Of a stretch of 64,000 bases of DNA, positions 35,149-56,214 are shown piece after piece (the first letter of the stretch is position 1; every line of letters starts with the position of its first letter). A model generated the notes under the pieces. The model had not been told where the DNA came from, ran no database searches, and saw only the letters and a program-made list of their open reading frames with translations. The translations under genes and the position numbers were made by a program. This DNA is from an uncultured virus (IMG/VR IMGVR_UViG_3300028377_000002) (Duplodnaviria; Heunggongvirae; Uroviricota; Caudoviricetes), in the IMG/VR virus record IMGVR_UViG_3300028377_000002; one strand, 5' to 3'.

Positions 35149-35517
35149 GGGGGTGACTGGATTTGACCAGAGATAGACTGAGAGATACAGCATGTAGTGT
35201 TAGATTGGAAACACTTAAATACTCTATCAAAACTTTTAAATGGCGACATTTTAAACGTAGAAGAAAATTTCTTTGCAACAGCTTCTAGGAGCTTTGCTGG
35301 AGAGGTGGCTGTAGCCTAATTACAGCAAATGGTGGTAGCCCACCAAGAACCTGATGTTAAACAGTAAAATAATCGGATAGTACTTAACGTTAAAGTGCAA
35401 AACTTTTGGAAGGGATTAGAAACCTTAACCTGTTTGGATGAATCATTAAACATACCTAAACATGTAGACGGATTTTGATTCGTTTTTGGGACGTGGGTTC
35501 GAATCCCACCACCTCCA
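35149..35517 (+). ncRNA. ssrA: tmRNA
   Basis: 5' GGGGGTGACTGGATTTGAC, 3' GTGGGTTCGAATCCCAC-CACCTCC-A with G3-U70; tag ORF 35242-35319 GDILNVEENFFATASRSFAGEVAVA*. Confidence 0.92.
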
Positions 35518-35578
35518 CAATTAAAAAAAGCCATAATTTAAATTATGGCTTTTTTGTTTTAAGTAATTAAATTAACAT

Positions 35579-37862: not shown

Positions 37863-38981
37863 ATGAGACTTTCAAAGAAAATAGAACTTCCAAAAGACGT
37901 GTTCGTGATGCATCACATCATGAGTCTACACGATAAAGAACTACATGTTGTAGGTGGAGCAGTTAGAGACTCACTATTGGGAATAAAACCAAAAGATTGG
38001 GATTTAGTAACTGACGCAAAACCATCTGAAGTGAAAGAAATATTTAGCGAATCTGAATTCGTTAATAATGTTCTGGATGTAGGCGAATCATTCGGTGTTA
38101 TTATCTTAGTAACCGACTCTGGTGAATACGAAGTAGCCACTATGAGAGCTGATGTGGGTAAGGGTAGAAGACCAGACTCAGTTAGTTTTAAATCAACTAT
38201 GAAGGAAGACGTCATGAGAAGAGGTTTAACAATGAACGCATTGTTTTACGATATTGGTAGTGGTGAAGTGGTCGACTTAGTTGGTGGTGTCGAAGACATT
38301 AAAAATGGTGTTGTTAGAGCTGTAGGTAAAGCTAGTGAAAGATTCGACGAAGACAGACTTAGAATACTTAGAGCAATTAGATTTGCTGGTAGATTTGGTT
38401 CCGACTTGGATAAAGAAATAGATGAGTTTTTAATTAAAGACAATTCACTTCAAGGCGTATCTGGTGAAAGAATTAGAGATGAGTTTATTAAAGGAATTAA
38501 ATCAGCTAAGTCAACCAAACACTTTTTAGGTATGATTGATAAGTACAACTTATTCCATACAATATTTGGTGGTTTGGAGCCAATTAACAAAGAGTTTGTT
38601 GAATCTAATGACGAGCTACTAGTGATTAGTAAGTTGTTAAGTGAAGCACCGCACAAAATTATAGGCAAAAAACTTAACTCAATTAAATACTCTTCGGATG
38701 AAGTTAGAAAAATAACTTTTTTAGTTAGATTTTTACAGTCATTTAGTAAGGACACTTTCTACGACTTGAAGAAAATACACTCAATATCTAAGTTAGATGA
38801 TGGTTTATTTAAAGAATTCAGTGAAGTTATGAGTATAAACTCTCAACTAGTTAAAAACTTTATTGAATTTAACTTCACCGTAGATGGTGGTGATGTGATG
38901 GATGAGTTTAAATTAAAAGCTGGCCCTGAATTAGGTAAGAAAATTAAATGGTTAGAGACCAGTAAATTTTTTAGCGTATAA
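37863..38981 (+). CDS. cca: CCA-adding tRNA nucleotidyltransferase
   Basis: VGGAVRD..DWD, RRGLTMNAL, EDRLRILRAIRF, SGERIRDE. Confidence 0.88.
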   Translation: MRLSKKIELPKDVFVMHHIMSLHDKELHVVGGAVRDSLLGIKPKDWDLVTDAKPSEVKEIFSESEFVNNVLDVGESFGVIILVTDSGEYEVATMRADVGKGRRPDSVSFKSTMKEDVMRRGLTMNALFYDIGSGEVVDLVGGVEDIKNGVVRAVGKASERFDEDRLRILRAIRFAGRFGSDLDKEIDEFLIKDNSLQGVSGERIRDEFIKGIKSAKSTKHFLGMIDKYNLFHTIFGGLEPINKEFVESNDELLVISKLLSEAPHKIIGKKLNSIKYSSDEVRKITFLVRFLQSFSKDTFYDLKKIHSISKLDDGLFKEFSEVMSINSQLVKNFIEFNFTVDGGDVMDEFKLKAGPELGKKIKWLETSKFFSV

Positions 38982-43599: not shown

Positions 43600-43672
43600 C
43601 GTGGTAGTCGGGATGACCAAGCTCTGGAAAGAGTATACTAGTTTTGTCGGGGTTCGAATCCCCTTTATTACG
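43600..43672 (+). tRNA. Atypical tRNA-like RNA, possible Ser(GGA)
   Basis: CGTGGTA/TATTACG acceptor, GGGG-TTCGAAT-CCCC T-arm, GCTC-TGGAAA-GAGT; short D-arm. Confidence 0.4.
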
Positions 43673-43905: not shown

Positions 43906-43999
43906 GGAGGGGTAAGTCGAAAGATTCTGGGTAACGTCTGCGGTTTTGAAAACCGTTAGTTCCGAAAGGGGCGTATGGGTTCGAATCCCATTCCCTCCG
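43906..43999 (+). tRNA. tRNA-Ser(TGA), enlarged D-loop
   Basis: GCGGT-TTTGAAA-ACCGT, long variable arm, G73. Confidence 0.75.
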
Positions 44000-44118
44000 C
44001 AATAGTTACCCAGCTTGTTCCGTCATGGGTTATAAAATTTACATCGATTAACGGAACCCAATGAAGGAGACCTTACCGAAAAAGTAGGTTAAAGGTGTTG
44101 TAATAATGACTATTAATT

Positions 44119-44205
44119 GGAGAGGTGGCAGAGCGGGCGATTGCGCTGGTCTTGAAAACCAGTGACCGTGAAAGCGGTCCGTGGGTTCGAATCCCACCCT
44201 CTCCG
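44119..44205 (+). tRNA. tRNA-Ser(TGA)
   Basis: Canonical class II cloverleaf. Confidence 0.92.
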
Positions 44206-44292
44206 CAAATATTATCGGAAGATGATGTCTAAATCAATATTAGTATTTTAATGGTGAACTATAGATAGTCATTAAAGAAAGTTATTGATTTC

Positions 44293-44361
44293 GCAATAGA
44301 GTGTGGTGGTAGCACGGCTCCGTTAAAGGGGTAGGGTTCAGGTTCGATTCCTGTTATTGCA
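44293..44361 (+). tRNA. Atypical tRNA-like RNA, anticodon ambiguous (GTT or TTA)
   Basis: GCAATAG/TTATTGC acceptor, CAGG-TTCGATT-CCTG, GCTCC-GTTAAA-GGGGT. Confidence 0.4.
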
Positions 44362-44375
44362 ACTATTAAAATAAT

Positions 44376-44448
44376 GGACTGATAGCTCAGTGGTCAGAGC
44401 AGGGAGCTGTTAACTCTCAGGTCGTGGGTTCGAATCCCACTCGGTCCT
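44376..44448 (+). tRNA. tRNA-Asn(GTT)
   Basis: GGGAG-CTGTTAA-CTCTC; discriminator T. Confidence 0.85.
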
Positions 44449-44574
44449 CTAGAAAGTATGTGAAAGCATTAATTTGCAAGGGGATGTACGTTATCGAGTG
44501 GTGAGAGACTACTATGGATGATAGGTTACAAATAATCCAACAGACGCTTTGAGATTCCTATCACTTTCTAATTT

Positions 44575-44664
44575 GGCCATGTATCCGAGGGGGACTTCTA
44601 ACCCCTTATCCGTAAATGGAGATGAGATAATATCAAATGGGGGGTTCGAATCCCTCCATGGTCA
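44575..44664 (+). tRNA. Rearranged tRNA-like RNA, Arg(TCT)
   Basis: GGCCATG/CATGGTC acceptor, no 5' D-arm, CTTCTAA loop, long insert before T-arm. Confidence 0.55.
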
Positions 44665-44672
44665 CAAAACAA

Positions 44673-44745
44673 TGGTAGGTAGTACTAATGTTAAAACCTT
44701 CGCCTGTTAAGCGAAAAGATGTGGGTTCGAGTCCCACCCTACCAG
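44673..44745 (+). tRNA. tRNA-Asn(GTT)
   Basis: TTCGC-CTGTTAA-GCGAA; U1-A72, G73; weak D-stem. Confidence 0.78.
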
Positions 44746-44840
44746 CAACAAAAAGTGTATTATATTGCACTATTCGTAATTTTTTAGGTCACAAACACTA
44801 AAATTACTTATAAAAGTGTATTTAAATGCACTATAATAAT

Positions 44841-44912
44841 AAACTACTAAGGTGTGGCGACGCATACATCCACGATGATGAGGGTTTAGGTTCAAGTCCT
44901 AGATAGTAGTTT
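44841..44912 (+). ncRNA. tRNA-like RNA, degenerate
   Basis: AAACTACTA/TAGTAGTTT closing stem, TAGG-TTCAAGT-CCTA T-arm. Confidence 0.35.
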
Positions 44913-44919
44913 ATAATAC

Positions 44920-44991
44920 GCTGATGTAGCTCAGAGGCAGAGCAAACGGCTGTTAACCGTTAGGTCGAGATTTCGATATTCTCCATCAGCG
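44920..44991 (+). tRNA. tRNA-Asn(GTT)
   Basis: AACGG-CTGTTAA-CCGTT; G73. Confidence 0.85.
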
Positions 44992-45001
44992 CAATTTAAC
45001 T

Positions 45002-45089
45002 GGAAGGTAGGCAGATACGGTTTGCTGCGCTGGATTGCTAATTCAGTCTTCCCGAAAGGGAAGTGAGGGTTCGAATCCCTTGCCTTCCG
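45002..45089 (+). tRNA. tRNA-Ser(GCT)
   Basis: CTGGA-TTGCTAA-TTCAG, long variable arm. Confidence 0.85.
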
Positions 45090-45101
45090 CTCTCCAGAAA
45101 T

Positions 45102-45174
45102 GCCCCTATGGTGTAATTGAATAACACATGGCCCTTCTAAGGCTTTGTTCTAGGTTTGAGTCCTAGTAGGGGTA
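45102..45174 (+). tRNA. tRNA-Arg(TCT)
   Basis: GGCC-CTTCTAA-GGCT; cloverleaf. Confidence 0.8.
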
Positions 45175-45180
45175 CTATAT

Positions 45181-45257
45181 TGTGCAATAACCAGCATGTC
45201 TGATACACATGACCAAGGTAATGGTTGAAAATGTGGGTTCGAATCCCACTTGCACAA
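45181..45257 (+). tRNA. Rearranged tRNA-like RNA, Ile(GAT)
   Basis: TGTGCAA/TTGCACA, CATGT-CTGATAC-ACATG, GG segment 3' of anticodon arm. Confidence 0.65.
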
Positions 45258-45311
45258 CTAAACACTGCCCTCTGGCGCAATTGGTTAATATCCTATAAAA
45301 ACGTATCATAA

Positions 45312-45388
45312 TGGGTTGTATCCCCTCAAGCTTATATCTTGTAGAAAGGGTAATTGGTTACATGCGAGTTCGAGTCTCGTCTTCCCAA
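45312..45388 (+). tRNA. Rearranged tRNA-like RNA, Ile(TAT)
   Basis: CAAG-CTTATAT-CTTG; CCC/GGG stem; TAATTGGTTA after anticodon arm; two U-U mismatches in acceptor. Confidence 0.58.
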
Positions 45389-45396
45389 CTTAATAT

Positions 45397-45473
45397 TGCC
45401 TCGTATCGGCTCTGACTCATAATCAGTAGAAACCGTAGTTGGTTACACGTGGGTTCGAATCCCTCCGAGGCAA
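45397..45473 (+). tRNA. Rearranged tRNA-like RNA, CAT anticodon (Ile2/Met)
   Basis: TGCCTCG/CGAGGCA, CTGA-CTCATAA-TCAG, CGG/CCG stem, TAGTTGGTTA. Confidence 0.65.
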
Positions 45474-45606
45474 CAAATAAACTTGCATAATTAATTATGT
45501 TTGTGTATATTTGCAATGATTAAAACGAATAGACTATGATAAGAATCAAATTAATAACTTTAAAACAGCATGAACATTAGGTGGAAACACTATAAAAACG
45601 TTCATT

Positions 45607-46091: not shown

Positions 46092-46200
46092 GGGGTAGTA
46101 GCTCAGTTGGTAGAGCAAATTGCGGATTAAATGATTTGAAAAATCGCCTTGCTAAAAGGGAATCAGTTATAGGTCGTAGGTTCAAGTCCTACCTACCCCG
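46092..46200 (+). ncRNA. tRNA-like RNA with branched anticodon domain
   Basis: Perfect acceptor, D and T arms; anticodon arm replaced by two hairpins. Confidence 0.7.
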
Positions 46201-47393: not shown

Positions 47394-47463
47394 TGCGTGA
47401 CTCCTAGGTGGAGGGCTTACTCTCATAAGGTTCGCTGGGTCGGTTCGAATCCGATTCACGCTA
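47394..47463 (+). tRNA. tRNA-Met(CAT)-like, divergent
   Basis: GCGTGA/TCACGC, CTCATAA loop, GTCGG-TTCGAAT-CCGAT. Confidence 0.5.
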
Positions 47464-48523: not shown

Positions 48524-48781
48524 ATGAATACAGCTAATTTCGATGTTAAAAACGGTACAGGTGTTTTATTATGTTCAGAGTGCAATAAGATAATAAAAAC
48601 TGAAGGTGATTTTGACATAGCTGAGAAATACGCCTATGAAGGGTTAGTATCCATGATGCCTAGATATTGTGATAACCACAATTATAAAGAAATGTCTGGT
48701 AAAGACAGAGCAAGGGAGTTACGTAAAAAAGGTATAAAAGAGTTTAAAAACAATATTAAGAATAAATTAAGAGAAGGATAA
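48524..48781 (+). CDS. Small zinc-binding protein
   Basis: LLCSEC...YCDNH. Confidence 0.5.
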   Translation: MNTANFDVKNGTGVLLCSECNKIIKTEGDFDIAEKYAYEGLVSMMPRYCDNHNYKEMSGKDRARELRKKGIKEFKNNIKNKLREG

Positions 48782-49704
48782 TGGAAAAAAACGTTTTAGG
48801 TGTTGCAGTAACTAGACCAAACCAAGTTTTAAATATAATGAGGGGTGTTAGTGGTTCTGGTAAGTCAACAAAAGCTAGAGAGATTGTTGGTGATGGTGTA
48901 ATCCACTCAACTGATGATTTAATTGAAAGCATTACAGGTGACTATGATGGTTTTTTCAAAAGTATGATTAAAAGCGGTAAGTTTCATAGATTAACTGAAA
49001 TGCATAATAAAAACTTTTTAAACGCCAAAAAGTCAATGGAGTCTGGTGTCAAAAATATAGTGATAGATAATACCAATATTAAAGCTAGTGAGCCTAAAAA
49101 ATATGTGGTAGAGGCTTTAAAACTTGGATATCACGAAGATAACATAAAGATAGTTGATGTGGGTTCTGGCGGTGCAACCGTTAAAGTCCTTAGCGAAAGA
49201 AACACACATGGAGTGCCATTAGATAAAATAAAAAAGATGGTGGCCTCACACAAAGGTGTGGGTGAATTAACCGTTAAAAAAATACTTGAAGCCAAAGACT
49301 TGGATAAAAGAAATGATGTTTTATATGCGGCGGTTGTTTTAGATGATGAATCTATAAAAATTTTAATTGAAGCATTTACAACTGGATTATCAGAAGACTG
49401 GAAAACTATTGCACATCACATGACAATAGTTTTTGGTAAAGGTCTAGAAGATAAAGAAGAAATAGGTAAAGAAGTGGAGTTAAAAGTTACTGAGTTAGGT
49501 TTTAGTGATTTGGCCATGGCCGTTAAAGTAGAAGGTTATCCTTCATCTAATTTAATACCTCACGTCACAGTAGCAGTGAATATAGAAAATGGTGGCAAAC
49601 CATATGATTCCAACAAAATAACTAATTGGGGTAAAGTTGATTTGGGTTACGAGCTTAAATTATACGGAACTGTAACTGAAGTGAAGAGAGAAGGTACAAC
49701 ATAA
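48781..49704 (+). CDS. Polynucleotide kinase (P-loop) fused to 2H phosphoesterase
   Basis: MRGVSGSGKST, IDNTN, RNTHGVP; HMT and HVT 2H motifs. Confidence 0.82.
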   Translation: MEKNVLGVAVTRPNQVLNIMRGVSGSGKSTKAREIVGDGVIHSTDDLIESITGDYDGFFKSMIKSGKFHRLTEMHNKNFLNAKKSMESGVKNIVIDNTNIKASEPKKYVVEALKLGYHEDNIKIVDVGSGGATVKVLSERNTHGVPLDKIKKMVASHKGVGELTVKKILEAKDLDKRNDVLYAAVVLDDESIKILIEAFTTGLSEDWKTIAHHMTIVFGKGLEDKEEIGKEVELKVTELGFSDLAMAVKVEGYPSSNLIPHVTVAVNIENGGKPYDSNKITNWGKVDLGYELKLYGTVTEVKREGTT

Positions 49705-51920: not shown

Positions 51921-53051
51921 ATGGAATTATCAGTAGTAACATACATCAAAAAACACGGTTTAGAAAAAACAGTGGAAGACTTTAAGTTGAAGTGTAAAGA
52001 TTACGGACATAAAATTCTTTTAAAATATGACCAATTAGAATCCGATATGGCTTTTATGGAAGCTAGAGAATGTCGTGGTTTGATTTTAGAAAAAGATACT
52101 TGGAAAGTCATGAGCCTTGCTTTCATCCGCTTCTTTAATTCAGCCGAAGGTCACGCATCTAAGATTGATTGGAATACTGCCATTATATTTTCAAAAGAAG
52201 ATGGCTCTTTAATTCAATTATATTGGGATTGGGTTACCGAAAGATGGTGTGTTGGTACAAGCGGTATGGCTGAGGCTGAAGGTGAGGTAAATGAAAAAGA
52301 AGGTACTACATTCTCAAGATTATTTTGGGATACTGTTGGAGGTAGATATGGTTTTAATGTTACTAACTTAGTTAAAGGTAGGACCTATGCTTTTGAATTA
52401 ATGACACCATATAATATCGTTGTAAAACCACATGGTGTTTCTTCAGTAGCTTTATTGGGTGTTAGAGATTTAAGGTCTTTAAATGAGTTAACATACACTC
52501 AATTAGAGTTGGTGGCTAAAGATATAAACGTACCATTAGTTGAAGTAATCGATATTAATGCTTCAAACGCTGGTCACTTAATGGGAACTTTTGAAGGTAT
52601 GCCTTTTACAGAAGAAGGTTATGTAGTTTGTGATGCTAATTTCAATAGAATTAAAATTAAGAACCCAGCTTATGTAGCGATGCATCACACTAAAAGTAAA
52701 TTAGGTAATCATCACATTTTAGAAGTGTTGAAAACTAATGAGATAGATGAATGGGTAGCTACATTTCCAGAGAGGTCCGAAGAAATAATAAACCTTAAAA
52801 ATGCTTTAAATAAGCTAACGGATGATTTGAAAAATTCTTGGGTAGAATTAAAACCGTACAAACCAAAAAATATAACTAAAAGTGAACAAAAAAAGTTTGC
52901 TATGAAAGTTTTTGAGGTGAATAATAAGAATTTTTCAAATAAGAGACATACTGGTTTATTCTTTGGACTCAAAGATGGTAAAATCAAATCGGTTAGAGAT
53001 TATATAAACAATATGAACAATAAAGAGTTATATAATATCCTAACTAATTAA
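51921..53051 (+). CDS. RNA ligase (T4 Rnl1-like)
   Basis: RECRGLI, RFFN, KEDGS, FEL, EGYVV, RIKIK. Confidence 0.85.
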   Translation: MELSVVTYIKKHGLEKTVEDFKLKCKDYGHKILLKYDQLESDMAFMEARECRGLILEKDTWKVMSLAFIRFFNSAEGHASKIDWNTAIIFSKEDGSLIQLYWDWVTERWCVGTSGMAEAEGEVNEKEGTTFSRLFWDTVGGRYGFNVTNLVKGRTYAFELMTPYNIVVKPHGVSSVALLGVRDLRSLNELTYTQLELVAKDINVPLVEVIDINASNAGHLMGTFEGMPFTEEGYVVCDANFNRIKIKNPAYVAMHHTKSKLGNHHILEVLKTNEIDEWVATFPERSEEIINLKNALNKLTDDLKNSWVELKPYKPKNITKSEQKKFAMKVFEVNNKNFSNKRHTGLFFGLKDGKIKSVRDYINNMNNKELYNILTN

Positions 53052-54414: not shown

Positions 54415-54487
54415 GGTCGATTAGCTCAGTTGGAAGAGCGGGAGATTCTAAACCTCTTAGTCATCGGTTCGAACCCGATATCGACCA
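54415..54487 (+). tRNA. Amber suppressor tRNA (CTA)
   Basis: GGTCGAT/ATCGACC acceptor, GCTC/GAGC D-stem, GGAGA-TTCTAAA-CCTCT, ATCGG-TTCGAAC-CCGAT; own promoter TATATTTG at 54394. Confidence 0.82.
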
Positions 54488-54522
54488 CTAAATAAAAATG
54501 TGTAACTTAAAAACAAAAAAAA

Positions 54523-56038: not shown

Positions 56039-56110
56039 GCGCAGGTTCCAGAGCGGCTATGGTGTTGCCCCGCAAGGCAATGTAGGGTGGTTCGAATCCA
56101 TCCCTGTGCT
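56039..56110 (+). tRNA. tRNA-Cys(GCA), atypical anticodon loop
   Basis: GCGCAGG/CCTGTGC, U73, TTGCC-CCGCAA-GGCAA. Confidence 0.65.
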
Positions 56111-56214
56111 CTTAAAATTAAATAAAATGAAATAGATAAAAATTAGAGGTCCAACTTACGTAGTTTTCAATTAGGAGATTAAAAAAAATAACAAAATACG
56201 TAAAATTTAAAAAT

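Follow-up and report, generated by a model that had tools for sequence, protein, structure and literature searches.

The stretch of DNA analyzed here, referred to as the window, comprises 64,000 nucleotides (nt) of an uncultured virus of the Caudoviricetes (IMG/VR record IMGVR_UViG_3300028377_000002). Its GC content is 32%, and a tRNA array with all of its genes on the same strand extends from approximately 43.4 to 47.7 kb. Three 77-nt tRNA-like genes on the plus strand of this array, in which the region that normally forms the D arm appears to be rewired, are the subject of this study: gene 1 at positions 45181-45257 (anticodon GAT, 45202-45204), gene 2 at 45312-45388 (anticodon TAT, 45333-45335), and gene 3 at 45397-45473 (anticodon CAT, 45418-45420). 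Genes 2 and 3 fall into the core of a family of phage genes described below, and gene 1 represents a divergent subtype. No open reading frame (ORF) of at least 60 amino acids was found on either strand over positions 44003-45606.

Three tRNA-like genes without a D hairpin

Each of the three genes has a 7-bp acceptor stem with U1-A72 and discriminator base A73, the bases U8-A9, a 7-nt anticodon loop, and a 5-bp T stem with a TTCGA-type loop. In all three, the hairpin between U8-A9 and the anticodon arm is absent, and a GG-containing stretch that resembles a D loop precedes the T stem. A short strand 5' of the anticodon arm is complementary to a strand 3' of it, and we refer to this pairing as the long-range helix. 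In gene 2, the 5' strand of this helix is CCC at 45322-45324 (columns 11-13 of the alignment described below, whose partners are columns 37-39); the linker TAGAAA at 45342-45347 joins the anticodon stem to the 3' strand of the helix, and the 3' strand and the D-loop-like strand together occupy 45348-45363 (GGG at 45348-45350, followed by 13 nt of the form U-A-R..GG-U..A-C-A-Y). The corresponding strands of gene 3, which pair by sequence, are CGG at 45407-45409 and CCG at 45433-45435, and in the D-loop-like strand at 45436-45448 the purine that follows UA is G and the base preceding the T stem is C. In gene 1, the putative D-stem substitute is ACC at 45190-45192 with its partner GGT at 45217-45219, in the same register as the helix of the core family; the region 45217-45232 consists of GGT and then 13 nt that contain GG and end in a U abutting the T stem. 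The A after the gene 1 helix and this last U match the R15:Y48 pattern found in the core family. These three units, with their U8-A9, U1-A72, and A73, their anticodons, their complementary strands, and their GG stretch, had been picked out in an earlier model-made reading of the letters (the sequence-only reading), and every one of these elements is present.

Gene 1 differs from the core family in its 5-bp Watson-Crick anticodon stem, in a different linker that lacks UAGAAA, and in a slightly altered D-loop-like strand. Three relatives of this subtype (L371-L373), all with the anticodon GAT, were obtained in a scan directed at it. The CC/GG part of the helix is invariant in all 4 members and is therefore consistent with pairing without providing covariation. 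The 54-nt spacer between genes 1 and 2 (45258-45311) contains an acceptor-like strand followed by the D-loop-like AATTGGTTAA, resembling the 5' part of a tRNA, and this stretch may have been left behind by a tRNA gene that underwent rearrangement.

A family of related genes in viral genomes

Relatives were sought with three sequence patterns. The first (scan 1), which consisted of the D-loop-like stretch and the T arm, matched 8 viral loci on 7 distinct contigs, all with the same layout. The second (scan 2) covered the 5' half only (U8-A9-U, N3, CU, N4, CUNAUA, N5, UAGAAA), placed no constraint on the T arm, the D-loop-like part, or the 3' strands of the helix and the acceptor stem, and returned at least 120 loci in the viral collection (IMG/VR). 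Since U8-A9, U33, and A37 were set by this pattern, their presence is not independent evidence. The full architecture, defined as the T arm plus the acceptor 3' strand with at least 9 of 12 positions pairing, was present in 127 of the 131 matches listed (viral loci and two cultured-phage loci), a rate far above chance; four (L032, L033, L072, and L123) were chance matches, and L107 was cut by a contig end. From the matches listed, 98 distinct relatives were obtained, which came from IMG/VR contigs and one record of a cultured crAss-like phage; the copy from a Streptomyces phage was identical to an IMG/VR sequence and was treated as a duplicate. Exactly 77 nt was the length in 80 of these relatives, which nevertheless had 70 distinct acceptor 5' strands, and both A73 and the GG of the D-loop-like strand were found in 98/98. 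The linker was TAGAAA in 95 and TTGAAA in 3, a constancy that arose by selection because the pattern demanded T[A/T]GAAA.

The third pattern (scan 3) combined the linker with the D-loop-like stretch and left the anticodon free. At least 120 matches were obtained, and 116 of the 120 listed belonged to the family, the remaining 4 lying in unrelated sequence. The anticodons of the 116 were UAU (99), GAU (12), and CAU (5), with no other; among the matches listed, the family is restricted to Ile anticodons. In Escherichia coli, the determinants recognized by isoleucyl-tRNA synthetase (IleRS) include the NAU anticodon, A37, and the discriminator A73. Among these, NAU was present in 116/116 of the family matches listed and A73 in 98/98 relatives, A37 being fixed by the pattern.

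When cellular genome records were searched with the scan 2 pattern, the family made up 8 of the 118 evaluated matches listed and the rest was mostly chance sequence, the cellular and viral figures both being proportions among the matches listed, not totals. The cellular family matches whose titles were seen were contigs of metagenome-assembled genomes. A blastn search of 44900-45600 against cultured phages matched only an ordinary tRNA-Asn, and the virus record closest to the window, a 59-kb fragment, lacked any match to this region. DNA of the window was also found in DNA metagenomes from lake water and a salt lake, a possible source.

Comparative evidence for the rewired core

The three window genes and the 98 relatives were combined in an alignment of 101 rows (A1). 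Standard pairs were formed in 97.9% of cells, compared with 64.8% after shuffling, and the covariation score was 0.852 compared with 0.215 for shuffled alignments and at most 0.174 when the partners were slid by 1 to 3 columns; kinship among the sequences causes the shuffle controls to overstate significance, and the slid-partner control, which keeps the relatedness, still separates clearly. The long-range helix (columns 11-13 with 37-39) was paired in 99.3% of cells, and all three of its pairs covary: pair 1 was CG in 86 rows, AU in 14, and UA in 1; pair 2 was CG in 49, UA in 34, GC in 15, AU in 2, and UG in 1; and pair 3 was CG in 87, GC in 12, and other in 2. Because the 3' strand of this helix lay outside the search pattern, the covariation was not built in. 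RNAalifold, run without any structure input, predicted the same long-range helix and added two pairs between the 5'-side CU and the A and G of the linker, both of which are invariant and hence neutral with regard to covariation. The other helices (helices 1, 3, and 5, i.e., the acceptor, anticodon, and T stems) were paired in 96.9%, 98.5%, and 98.0% of cells, respectively, with double changes in 15 of 16 pairs. In most family members the anticodon stem consists of 4 Watson-Crick pairs and a U.U. The sequence-only reading had proposed an alternative wiring of the tRNA core, and the covariation in about 100 relatives, together with the independent RNAalifold prediction, bears this out. A conventional cloverleaf that fitted equally well would have counted against that reading. 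A D hairpin, however, cannot be drawn, and the sole local hairpin available, within the insert before the T stem, was rejected since it has no covariation. On this comparative evidence, we consider the secondary structure established.

The D-loop-like strand has a constant order: U-A-R, 2 to 3 bases, GG, U, 1 to 2 bases, A, C-A-Y, and the T stem. Across the 101 rows, the purine after UA (column 42) and the pyrimidine 5' of the T stem (column 53) were A:U in 71, G:C in 28, and other in 2. Each of the four large helix classes includes rows with A:U and rows with G:C, and the switch must therefore have happened repeatedly. A:U/G:C covariation between a purine and a pyrimidine is the pattern of the R15:Y48 tertiary pair in ordinary tRNAs. 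Columns 42 and 53 thus appear to be a tertiary pair of the R15:Y48 type, which a local hairpin leaves unexplained. The remainder of the strand can likewise be matched to a D loop (A14, R15, G18-G19, and A21). Given the R15:Y48 covariation, the GG, and the fact that U8, A9, and A14 are invariant in the family (U8-A9 being fixed by the pattern), the strands would map onto a canonical tRNA with the equivalent of positions 22-25 coming first and that of positions 10-21 coming after the anticodon arm.

Standard tRNA finders and models

ARAGORN did not call genes 1 to 3 in its default, -i, -mt, or -ps mode; in -mt mode it reported merely a 55-nt piece inside gene 3. Likewise, when the Rfam tRNA model RF00005 was run on the whole window at its gathering threshold (29 bits), none of the three genes was reported. 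On the short stretch alone, RF00005 gave 33.1 bits for gene 1, 20.3 bits for gene 2, and 31.9 bits for gene 3, and its alignment of the three genes had the D arm deleted (4 nt in place of 15) and an 18-nt insertion in the variable region before the T stem; the D-arm hairpin of the model (positions 10-25) is lacking in all three. In Rfam 15, there was no family for these genes beyond the weak tRNA matches. The expectation of the sequence-only reading that standard finders would miss such genes held not only in the window, where ARAGORN called 0/3, but also in the family at large, where it called 2 of 88 genes at 87 loci, one of them with the wrong identity, and missed 86.

A model of the rewired phage tRNA-Ile family was built here (R1), with genes 1 to 3 included in its training alignment. 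Gene 1 scored 51.7 bits, gene 2 scored 88.9 bits, and gene 3 scored 91.5 bits, and since genes 2 and 3 were both in the training alignment, their scores are partly by construction. Independent relatives scored 80 to 100 bits, and ordinary tRNAs scored at most about 30 bits. The features that characterize the R1 family, namely, the 3-bp long-range helix, the UAGAAA linker, the D-loop-like strand, and an NAU anticodon, are all found in genes 2 and 3.

A long-insert relative and an Arg(UCU) sister family

A further tRNA-like gene in the array, at 44575-44664 on the plus strand, is 90 nt long, has the anticodon TCT, lacks a D hairpin, and contains a 34-nt insert. The sequence-only reading had counted it as a fourth member. 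The missing D hairpin stands, and on sequence grounds the gene is a looser relative, of a long-insert subtype; membership in the core family was rejected on account of its R1 score of 26.9 bits, which lies in the range of ordinary tRNAs, its TCT anticodon, its insert, and its helix, in which only 2 of 3 positions pair (CCG/CCG, with a central C.C mismatch). Its anticodon stem has an A.C mismatch, and the Rfam tRNA model gave it 28.5 bits. The insert motif recurs at four viral loci (L374-L377), where the anticodon is TAT and a D hairpin is likewise missing. Their long-range strands are CGA/UCG in L374 and L375, CAG/UUG in L376, and CGA/CCG (2 of 3 paired) in L377, and letters of the R15:Y48 type fit. 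The base after GG in the gene at 44575-44664 is A, a trait of the Arg-type sister family described next.

Arg-type units were met in more than one setting: R1 picked up a TCT-bearing unit beside a family member at L065, and in one lake-metagenome contig a TCT anticodon arm is joined to a 3' half like that of gene 1. A pattern for the Arg type matched 55 viral loci (L379-L433), and the full module was present in 39 of the 54 evaluated, giving 26 distinct sequences. Covariation in the alignment of these sequences (A3) was seen at two pairs of the long-range helix (GC in 22 and CG in 4; CG in 22, AU in 2, and GC in 2), and the third position pairs in just 4/26. The discriminator of the sister family is mostly G. 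From these data, a sister family with a core rewired in the same way carries the Arg anticodon UCU. The base after GG was A in 26/26 sequences of the Arg(UCU) type versus U in 96/98 of the Ile type. In E. coli, A20 in the D loop is a main determinant for arginyl-tRNA synthetase (ArgRS). If that rule holds here, the GGA in 26/26 would mean that the synthetase recognizes the transposed strand as a D loop, and it would be indirect support for charging.

Occurrence in cultured phages

The family occurs in more than 40 Streptomyces phages (including EGole and Jay2Jay), in the crAss-like Kehishuvirus 'tikkala', and in a few others. Among the first 40 cultured-phage matches listed, 38 were unannotated, and the other two, both EGole records, annotate the gene as tRNA-Leu(UUA). 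The EGole copy (L129:1495-1571; MK494112.1, 75265-75341) has the loop CUGAUAA, i.e., the anticodon GAU, and is a member of the R1 family with 95 bits. A nucleotidyltransferase gene lies directly upstream of it. Most of the sister Streptomyces phages listed have the same gene without annotation, and the 'tikkala' copy is unannotated between tRNA-Trp and tRNA-Met. Because both ARAGORN and the existing annotation miss such genes, phage tRNA inventories and analyses of codon supply would undercount decoders for Ile (AUA) and Arg (AGA).

Codon demand and genomic context

In 57 non-overlapping ORFs of at least 120 amino acids in the window, ATA accounted for 569 of 1156 Ile codons (49%) and AGA for 375 of 556 Arg codons. 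No canonical tRNA-Ile was called in the 64 kb, two Rfam tRNA matches without a default ARAGORN call (44292-44362 and 46092-46200) being left with unread anticodons. At the related loci, other tRNA genes were present within 2 kb in 74 of 87 cases.

One comparison between related phages bears on the standing of the rewired form. L007 carries an 84-nt cloverleaf tRNA-Ile(GAT) with a long variable arm that is called by ARAGORN, and L373 carries a 77-nt rewired form; the two genes have in common the acceptor stem, the T arm, and approximately 50 nt of downstream flank (one mismatch). With the stems and flank shared, one locus is thus occupied in related phages by either of the two architectures, the anticodon being unchanged, which argues for equivalence of the cloverleaf and rewired forms. 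The 84-nt form was seen twice (L006:1117-1200 and L007:2238-2321, minus strand), each time as a tRNA-Ile(GAT) with a weak D arm and a long class II-like variable-arm hairpin, and one of these two genes is the ortholog of the rewired gene in L373. A long class II-like variable arm is unusual for a bacterial-type tRNA-Ile.

Several other genes of the window concern RNA. A nucleotidyltransferase of the CCA-adding type lies at 37863-38981 (PolyA_pol head domain, 121.7 bits), a kinase/phosphodiesterase-like protein is encoded at 48781-49704, an Rnl1-like RNA ligase is encoded at 51921-53051 (tblastn), and a tmRNA is located at 35149-35518. Together, these four resemble a toolkit for tRNA maintenance and repair near the tRNA array. 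Within the array, five plus-strand units (43601-43672, 43906-43999, 44844-44910, 46092-46200, and 47394-47463) have an acceptor stem and a T arm and received no default ARAGORN call. The unit at 46092-46200, an Rfam tRNA match, has approximately 36 extra nt in the anticodon region and is reported by ARAGORN -i as tRNA-Phe(aaa) with an intron; that at 43906-43999 looks like a tRNA of the Ser(UGA) type with an odd D region; and that at 43601-43672 has no recognizable 7-nt anticodon loop. Farther downstream, ARAGORN found two tRNAs (54415-54488 and 56039-56111), one with an irregular anticodon loop and one whose anticodon, CTA, would decode the stop codon TAG. The stop codons of the 57 long ORFs were TAA (44), TGA (8), and TAG (5).

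Discussion

The reading that we prefer is that genes 1 to 3 are working tRNA-Ile genes of a widespread phage family, in which an L-shape would be attained from a three-way junction and which would supply AUA decoding. We judge this reading as a whole to be probable, and on the sequence evidence a function as working tRNA-Ile is likely. The acceptor stem, the T arm, and the anticodon arm are standard, and the D hairpin is absent. The 3 to 4 nt after U8-A9 would stand in for the 3' strand of the D stem (positions 22-25) and lead directly into the anticodon stem; the partner strand (positions 10-13) would be placed after the anticodon stem and the UAGAAA linker. Next would come the D-loop-like single strand (A14, R15, G18-G19, and A21), which would pass via C-A-Y into the T stem and would end where the variable loop normally enters it. 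In the resulting three-way junction, the "D stem" would continue the anticodon helix, as it does by stacking in a normal tRNA, and the contacts U8:A14, R15:Y48, and G18/G19 with the T loop would form. We infer, by analogy with the three-dimensional structure of ordinary tRNAs, that the D-loop-like strand would make the usual elbow and core contacts and restore the L-shape. The RNAs would be cut from the transcript of the tRNA array, receive CCA, and be charged by the host IleRS, after which UAU would decode AUA, GAU would decode AUU and AUC, and CAU would decode AUA or AUG. A UAU anticodon would read AUA without TilS, which fits the codon usage of the window. Such decoding would be of consequence to a very AT-rich phage, half of whose Ile codons are ATA.

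A number of observations weigh against this interpretation. Besides the kinship within A1 mentioned above, the restoration of the L-shape draws on a three-dimensional analogy. The acceptor stem of gene 2 has two U.U mismatches and the T stem of gene 3 has one; those of the gene 2 type recur in relatives, including the copy in the crAss-like phage, the column pair 6:72 being U.U in 14/101 rows, and the core of gene 2 is found nearly identical in L006 and L008 with a compensatory change at 1:72. Single-sequence folding was unremarkable, with z scores of -1.54, 0.07, and -2.13 for genes 1, 2, and 3 and -2.31 for 44575-44664, and the minimum-energy folds of genes 1 and 3 deviate from the proposed structure. 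The sole record from an RNA library is a 245-nt metatranscriptome contig that matches 45325-45379 (55 nt of gene 2) with one difference and runs past the gene; as it is unlike the window beyond 45379, it represents a relative's copy. Such contigs show neither RNA ends nor CCA, and DNA carry-over is possible in an RNA library. Moreover, the rewired genes are often redundant: a canonical tRNA-Ile lies within 2 kb at 12 of 87 loci, a canonical GAU gene adjoins the rewired GAU gene in L057, and in EGole annotated canonical tRNA-Ile genes for AUA and AUC stand beside the rewired GAU copy. Because of this redundancy, plain codon supply fails to explain the upkeep of the odd form.

A reason for the shape itself would be provided if the rewired core allowed a working tRNA-Ile to go unseen by a nuclease, toxin, or modification enzyme that recognizes the D arm while remaining usable by IleRS, EF-Tu, and the ribosome. 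Such escape is a special case of the preferred explanation, to which it adds that reason, and it would account for the redundancy with canonical copies, for the near-exclusive association with viruses (127 of 131 matches listed from viral and two cultured-phage loci versus 8 of 118 from cellular records), and for the occurrence of the same wiring in Arg(UCU) tRNAs. The selecting defense or enzyme is hypothetical, however, and the sequence data fit equally well a single successful gene that spread neutrally through horizontal transfer, so that we regard escape as possible but doubtful.

Alternatively, the RNAs might act as decoys or sponges that mimic tRNA-Ile and bind a host factor attacking it, such as an anticodon nuclease or a tRNA-acetylating toxin, without being used in translation. 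The pairing, in some phages, of a rewired gene with a canonical tRNA-Ile of the same or complementary anticodon would suit such a role; a decoy would also need the conserved anticodon loop, and the Rnl1-like ligase and the kinase/phosphodiesterase-like protein suggest that the lineage may face defenses that target tRNA. For a decoy, however, it would be unnecessary to retain R15:Y48, the T arm, and A73 along with a perfect 7-bp acceptor stem, all at once, in 98 relatives. In addition, the window has no called canonical tRNA-Ile although nearly half of its Ile codons are ATA, and the cloverleaf tRNA-Ile and the rewired form can take each other's place at an orthologous locus. We know of no defense nuclease in phage immunity that is specific for tRNA-Ile, and the decoy role appears unlikely.

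It is very improbable that the genes encode D-armless tRNAs of a class II-like kind, in which G-U-A-R and U-U-A-C would form a small variable-arm hairpin and the strand after U8-A9 would stay single. Although the sequences of genes 2 and 3 and of many relatives allow such a hairpin, and 82.7% of cells can pair, that value is exactly the shuffled mean, with zero double changes; pair 41:49 is broken in 44/95 cells, and column 39 changes with column 11 and not with column 51. Finally, decaying tRNA pseudogenes or chance tRNA-like fragments, which would be in keeping with the low Rfam score of gene 2 (20.3 bits), with the mismatches in genes 2 and 3, and with several other odd tRNA-like units in the array, are scarcely credible in view of the fixed length (77 nt in 80/98), the compensatory changes in every helix, and the maintenance of the architecture across 70 acceptor stems and distant phages (crAss-like phages, Streptomyces phages, and lake and marine contigs).

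To return to genes 1 to 3 as working tRNA-Ile genes, they share with canonical bacterial and phage elongator tRNA-Ile (RF00005) the 7-bp acceptor stem, A73, the 5-bp T stem with a UUCRA-type loop, the 7-nt anticodon loop with U33 and A37, NAU anticodons, U8-A9, GG, R15:Y48 covariation, and location in tRNA arrays. They differ in that the phage family has no D hairpin, the equivalent of positions 22-25 coming first and that of 10-21 following the anticodon arm, in that the predicted junction is three-way instead of four-way, and in that the anticodon stem mostly has 4 Watson-Crick pairs and a U.U. The D-armless tRNAs of animal mitochondria (mt-tRNAs), e.g., mt-tRNA-Ser(AGY), also lack a D hairpin (PMC9427863 and PMC7609411). 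In a nematode mt-tRNA-Ser, a connector replaces the D arm and yields a more flexible molecule with a less rigid L-shape (PMC7609411). In contrast, the phage family is not organellar, and because it retains R15:Y48, the GG strand, and a D-stem substitute that covaries, it looks like a full L-shape built in a different way. The reduced elbow of the mitochondrial D-armless class is not what was found here: GG is present in 98/98, the T loop is of the canonical kind, and R15:Y48 shows covariation.

L-shaped mimics of tRNA that use a non-cloverleaf connectivity include the tRNA-like structures at the 3' end of plant viral RNAs and, in tmRNA, the tRNA-like domain. The phage RNAs would resemble them in reaching an L-shape by another connectivity. 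Those structures, however, are parts of larger RNAs that are not read by the ribosome as anticodon adaptors, whereas the phage RNA is tRNA-sized, and both its acceptor stem and its anticodon arm, which bears sense anticodons, are normal. Allo-tRNAs, with 8/4 or 9/3 acceptor/T branches, were found by relaxed searches of phage and metagenome data, some of them in phages, and UAU is frequent in the 8/4 type (PMC5389517 and PMC7609411). Both these and tRNA-Sec keep a four-arm cloverleaf with altered stem lengths, whereas the phage family keeps the 7/5 arrangement and alters the topology of the D arm.

The wiring was not described in the full-text literature found, a scope outside which subscription journals lie. 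In particular, no description is contained in the accessible text of a review on non-canonical tRNAs (PMC7609411), of the allo-tRNA paper (PMC5389517), or of a 2026 paper on 4-bp anticodon stems (PMC13092985), nor in that of a survey of structured RNAs in IMG/VR (PMC10690425), alignments in its supplement aside, where an unnamed candidate could be this family. Relative to the literature found, a tRNA shape with the strands of the D arm in a different order would be new.

A broader proposal, for which we put the chances only slightly above even, is that the RNAs, their core being a three-way junction, serve bacterial ribosomes as fully functional elongator tRNAs, which would exist with Ile (UAU, GAU, and CAU) and Arg (UCU) identities and would have spread over unrelated phage groups, possibly via escape from a host enzyme that recognizes the D arm. 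If this is true, the family would represent the first description, as far as the literature found extends, of a natural tRNA architecture other than the cloverleaf outside organelles, and its Ile and Arg identities would read the A-ending codons most needed by AT-rich phages. The family is common, with at least 120 loci in each of two IMG/VR pattern scans, and its occurrence in cultured phages makes a bench study possible. It shows how far the core of a tRNA can be re-threaded with its tertiary contacts apparently kept, which bears on how the shape of a tRNA is read by synthetases, EF-Tu, RNase P, the CCA-adding enzyme, and the ribosome, and it may offer a ready scaffold for engineered or orthogonal tRNAs.

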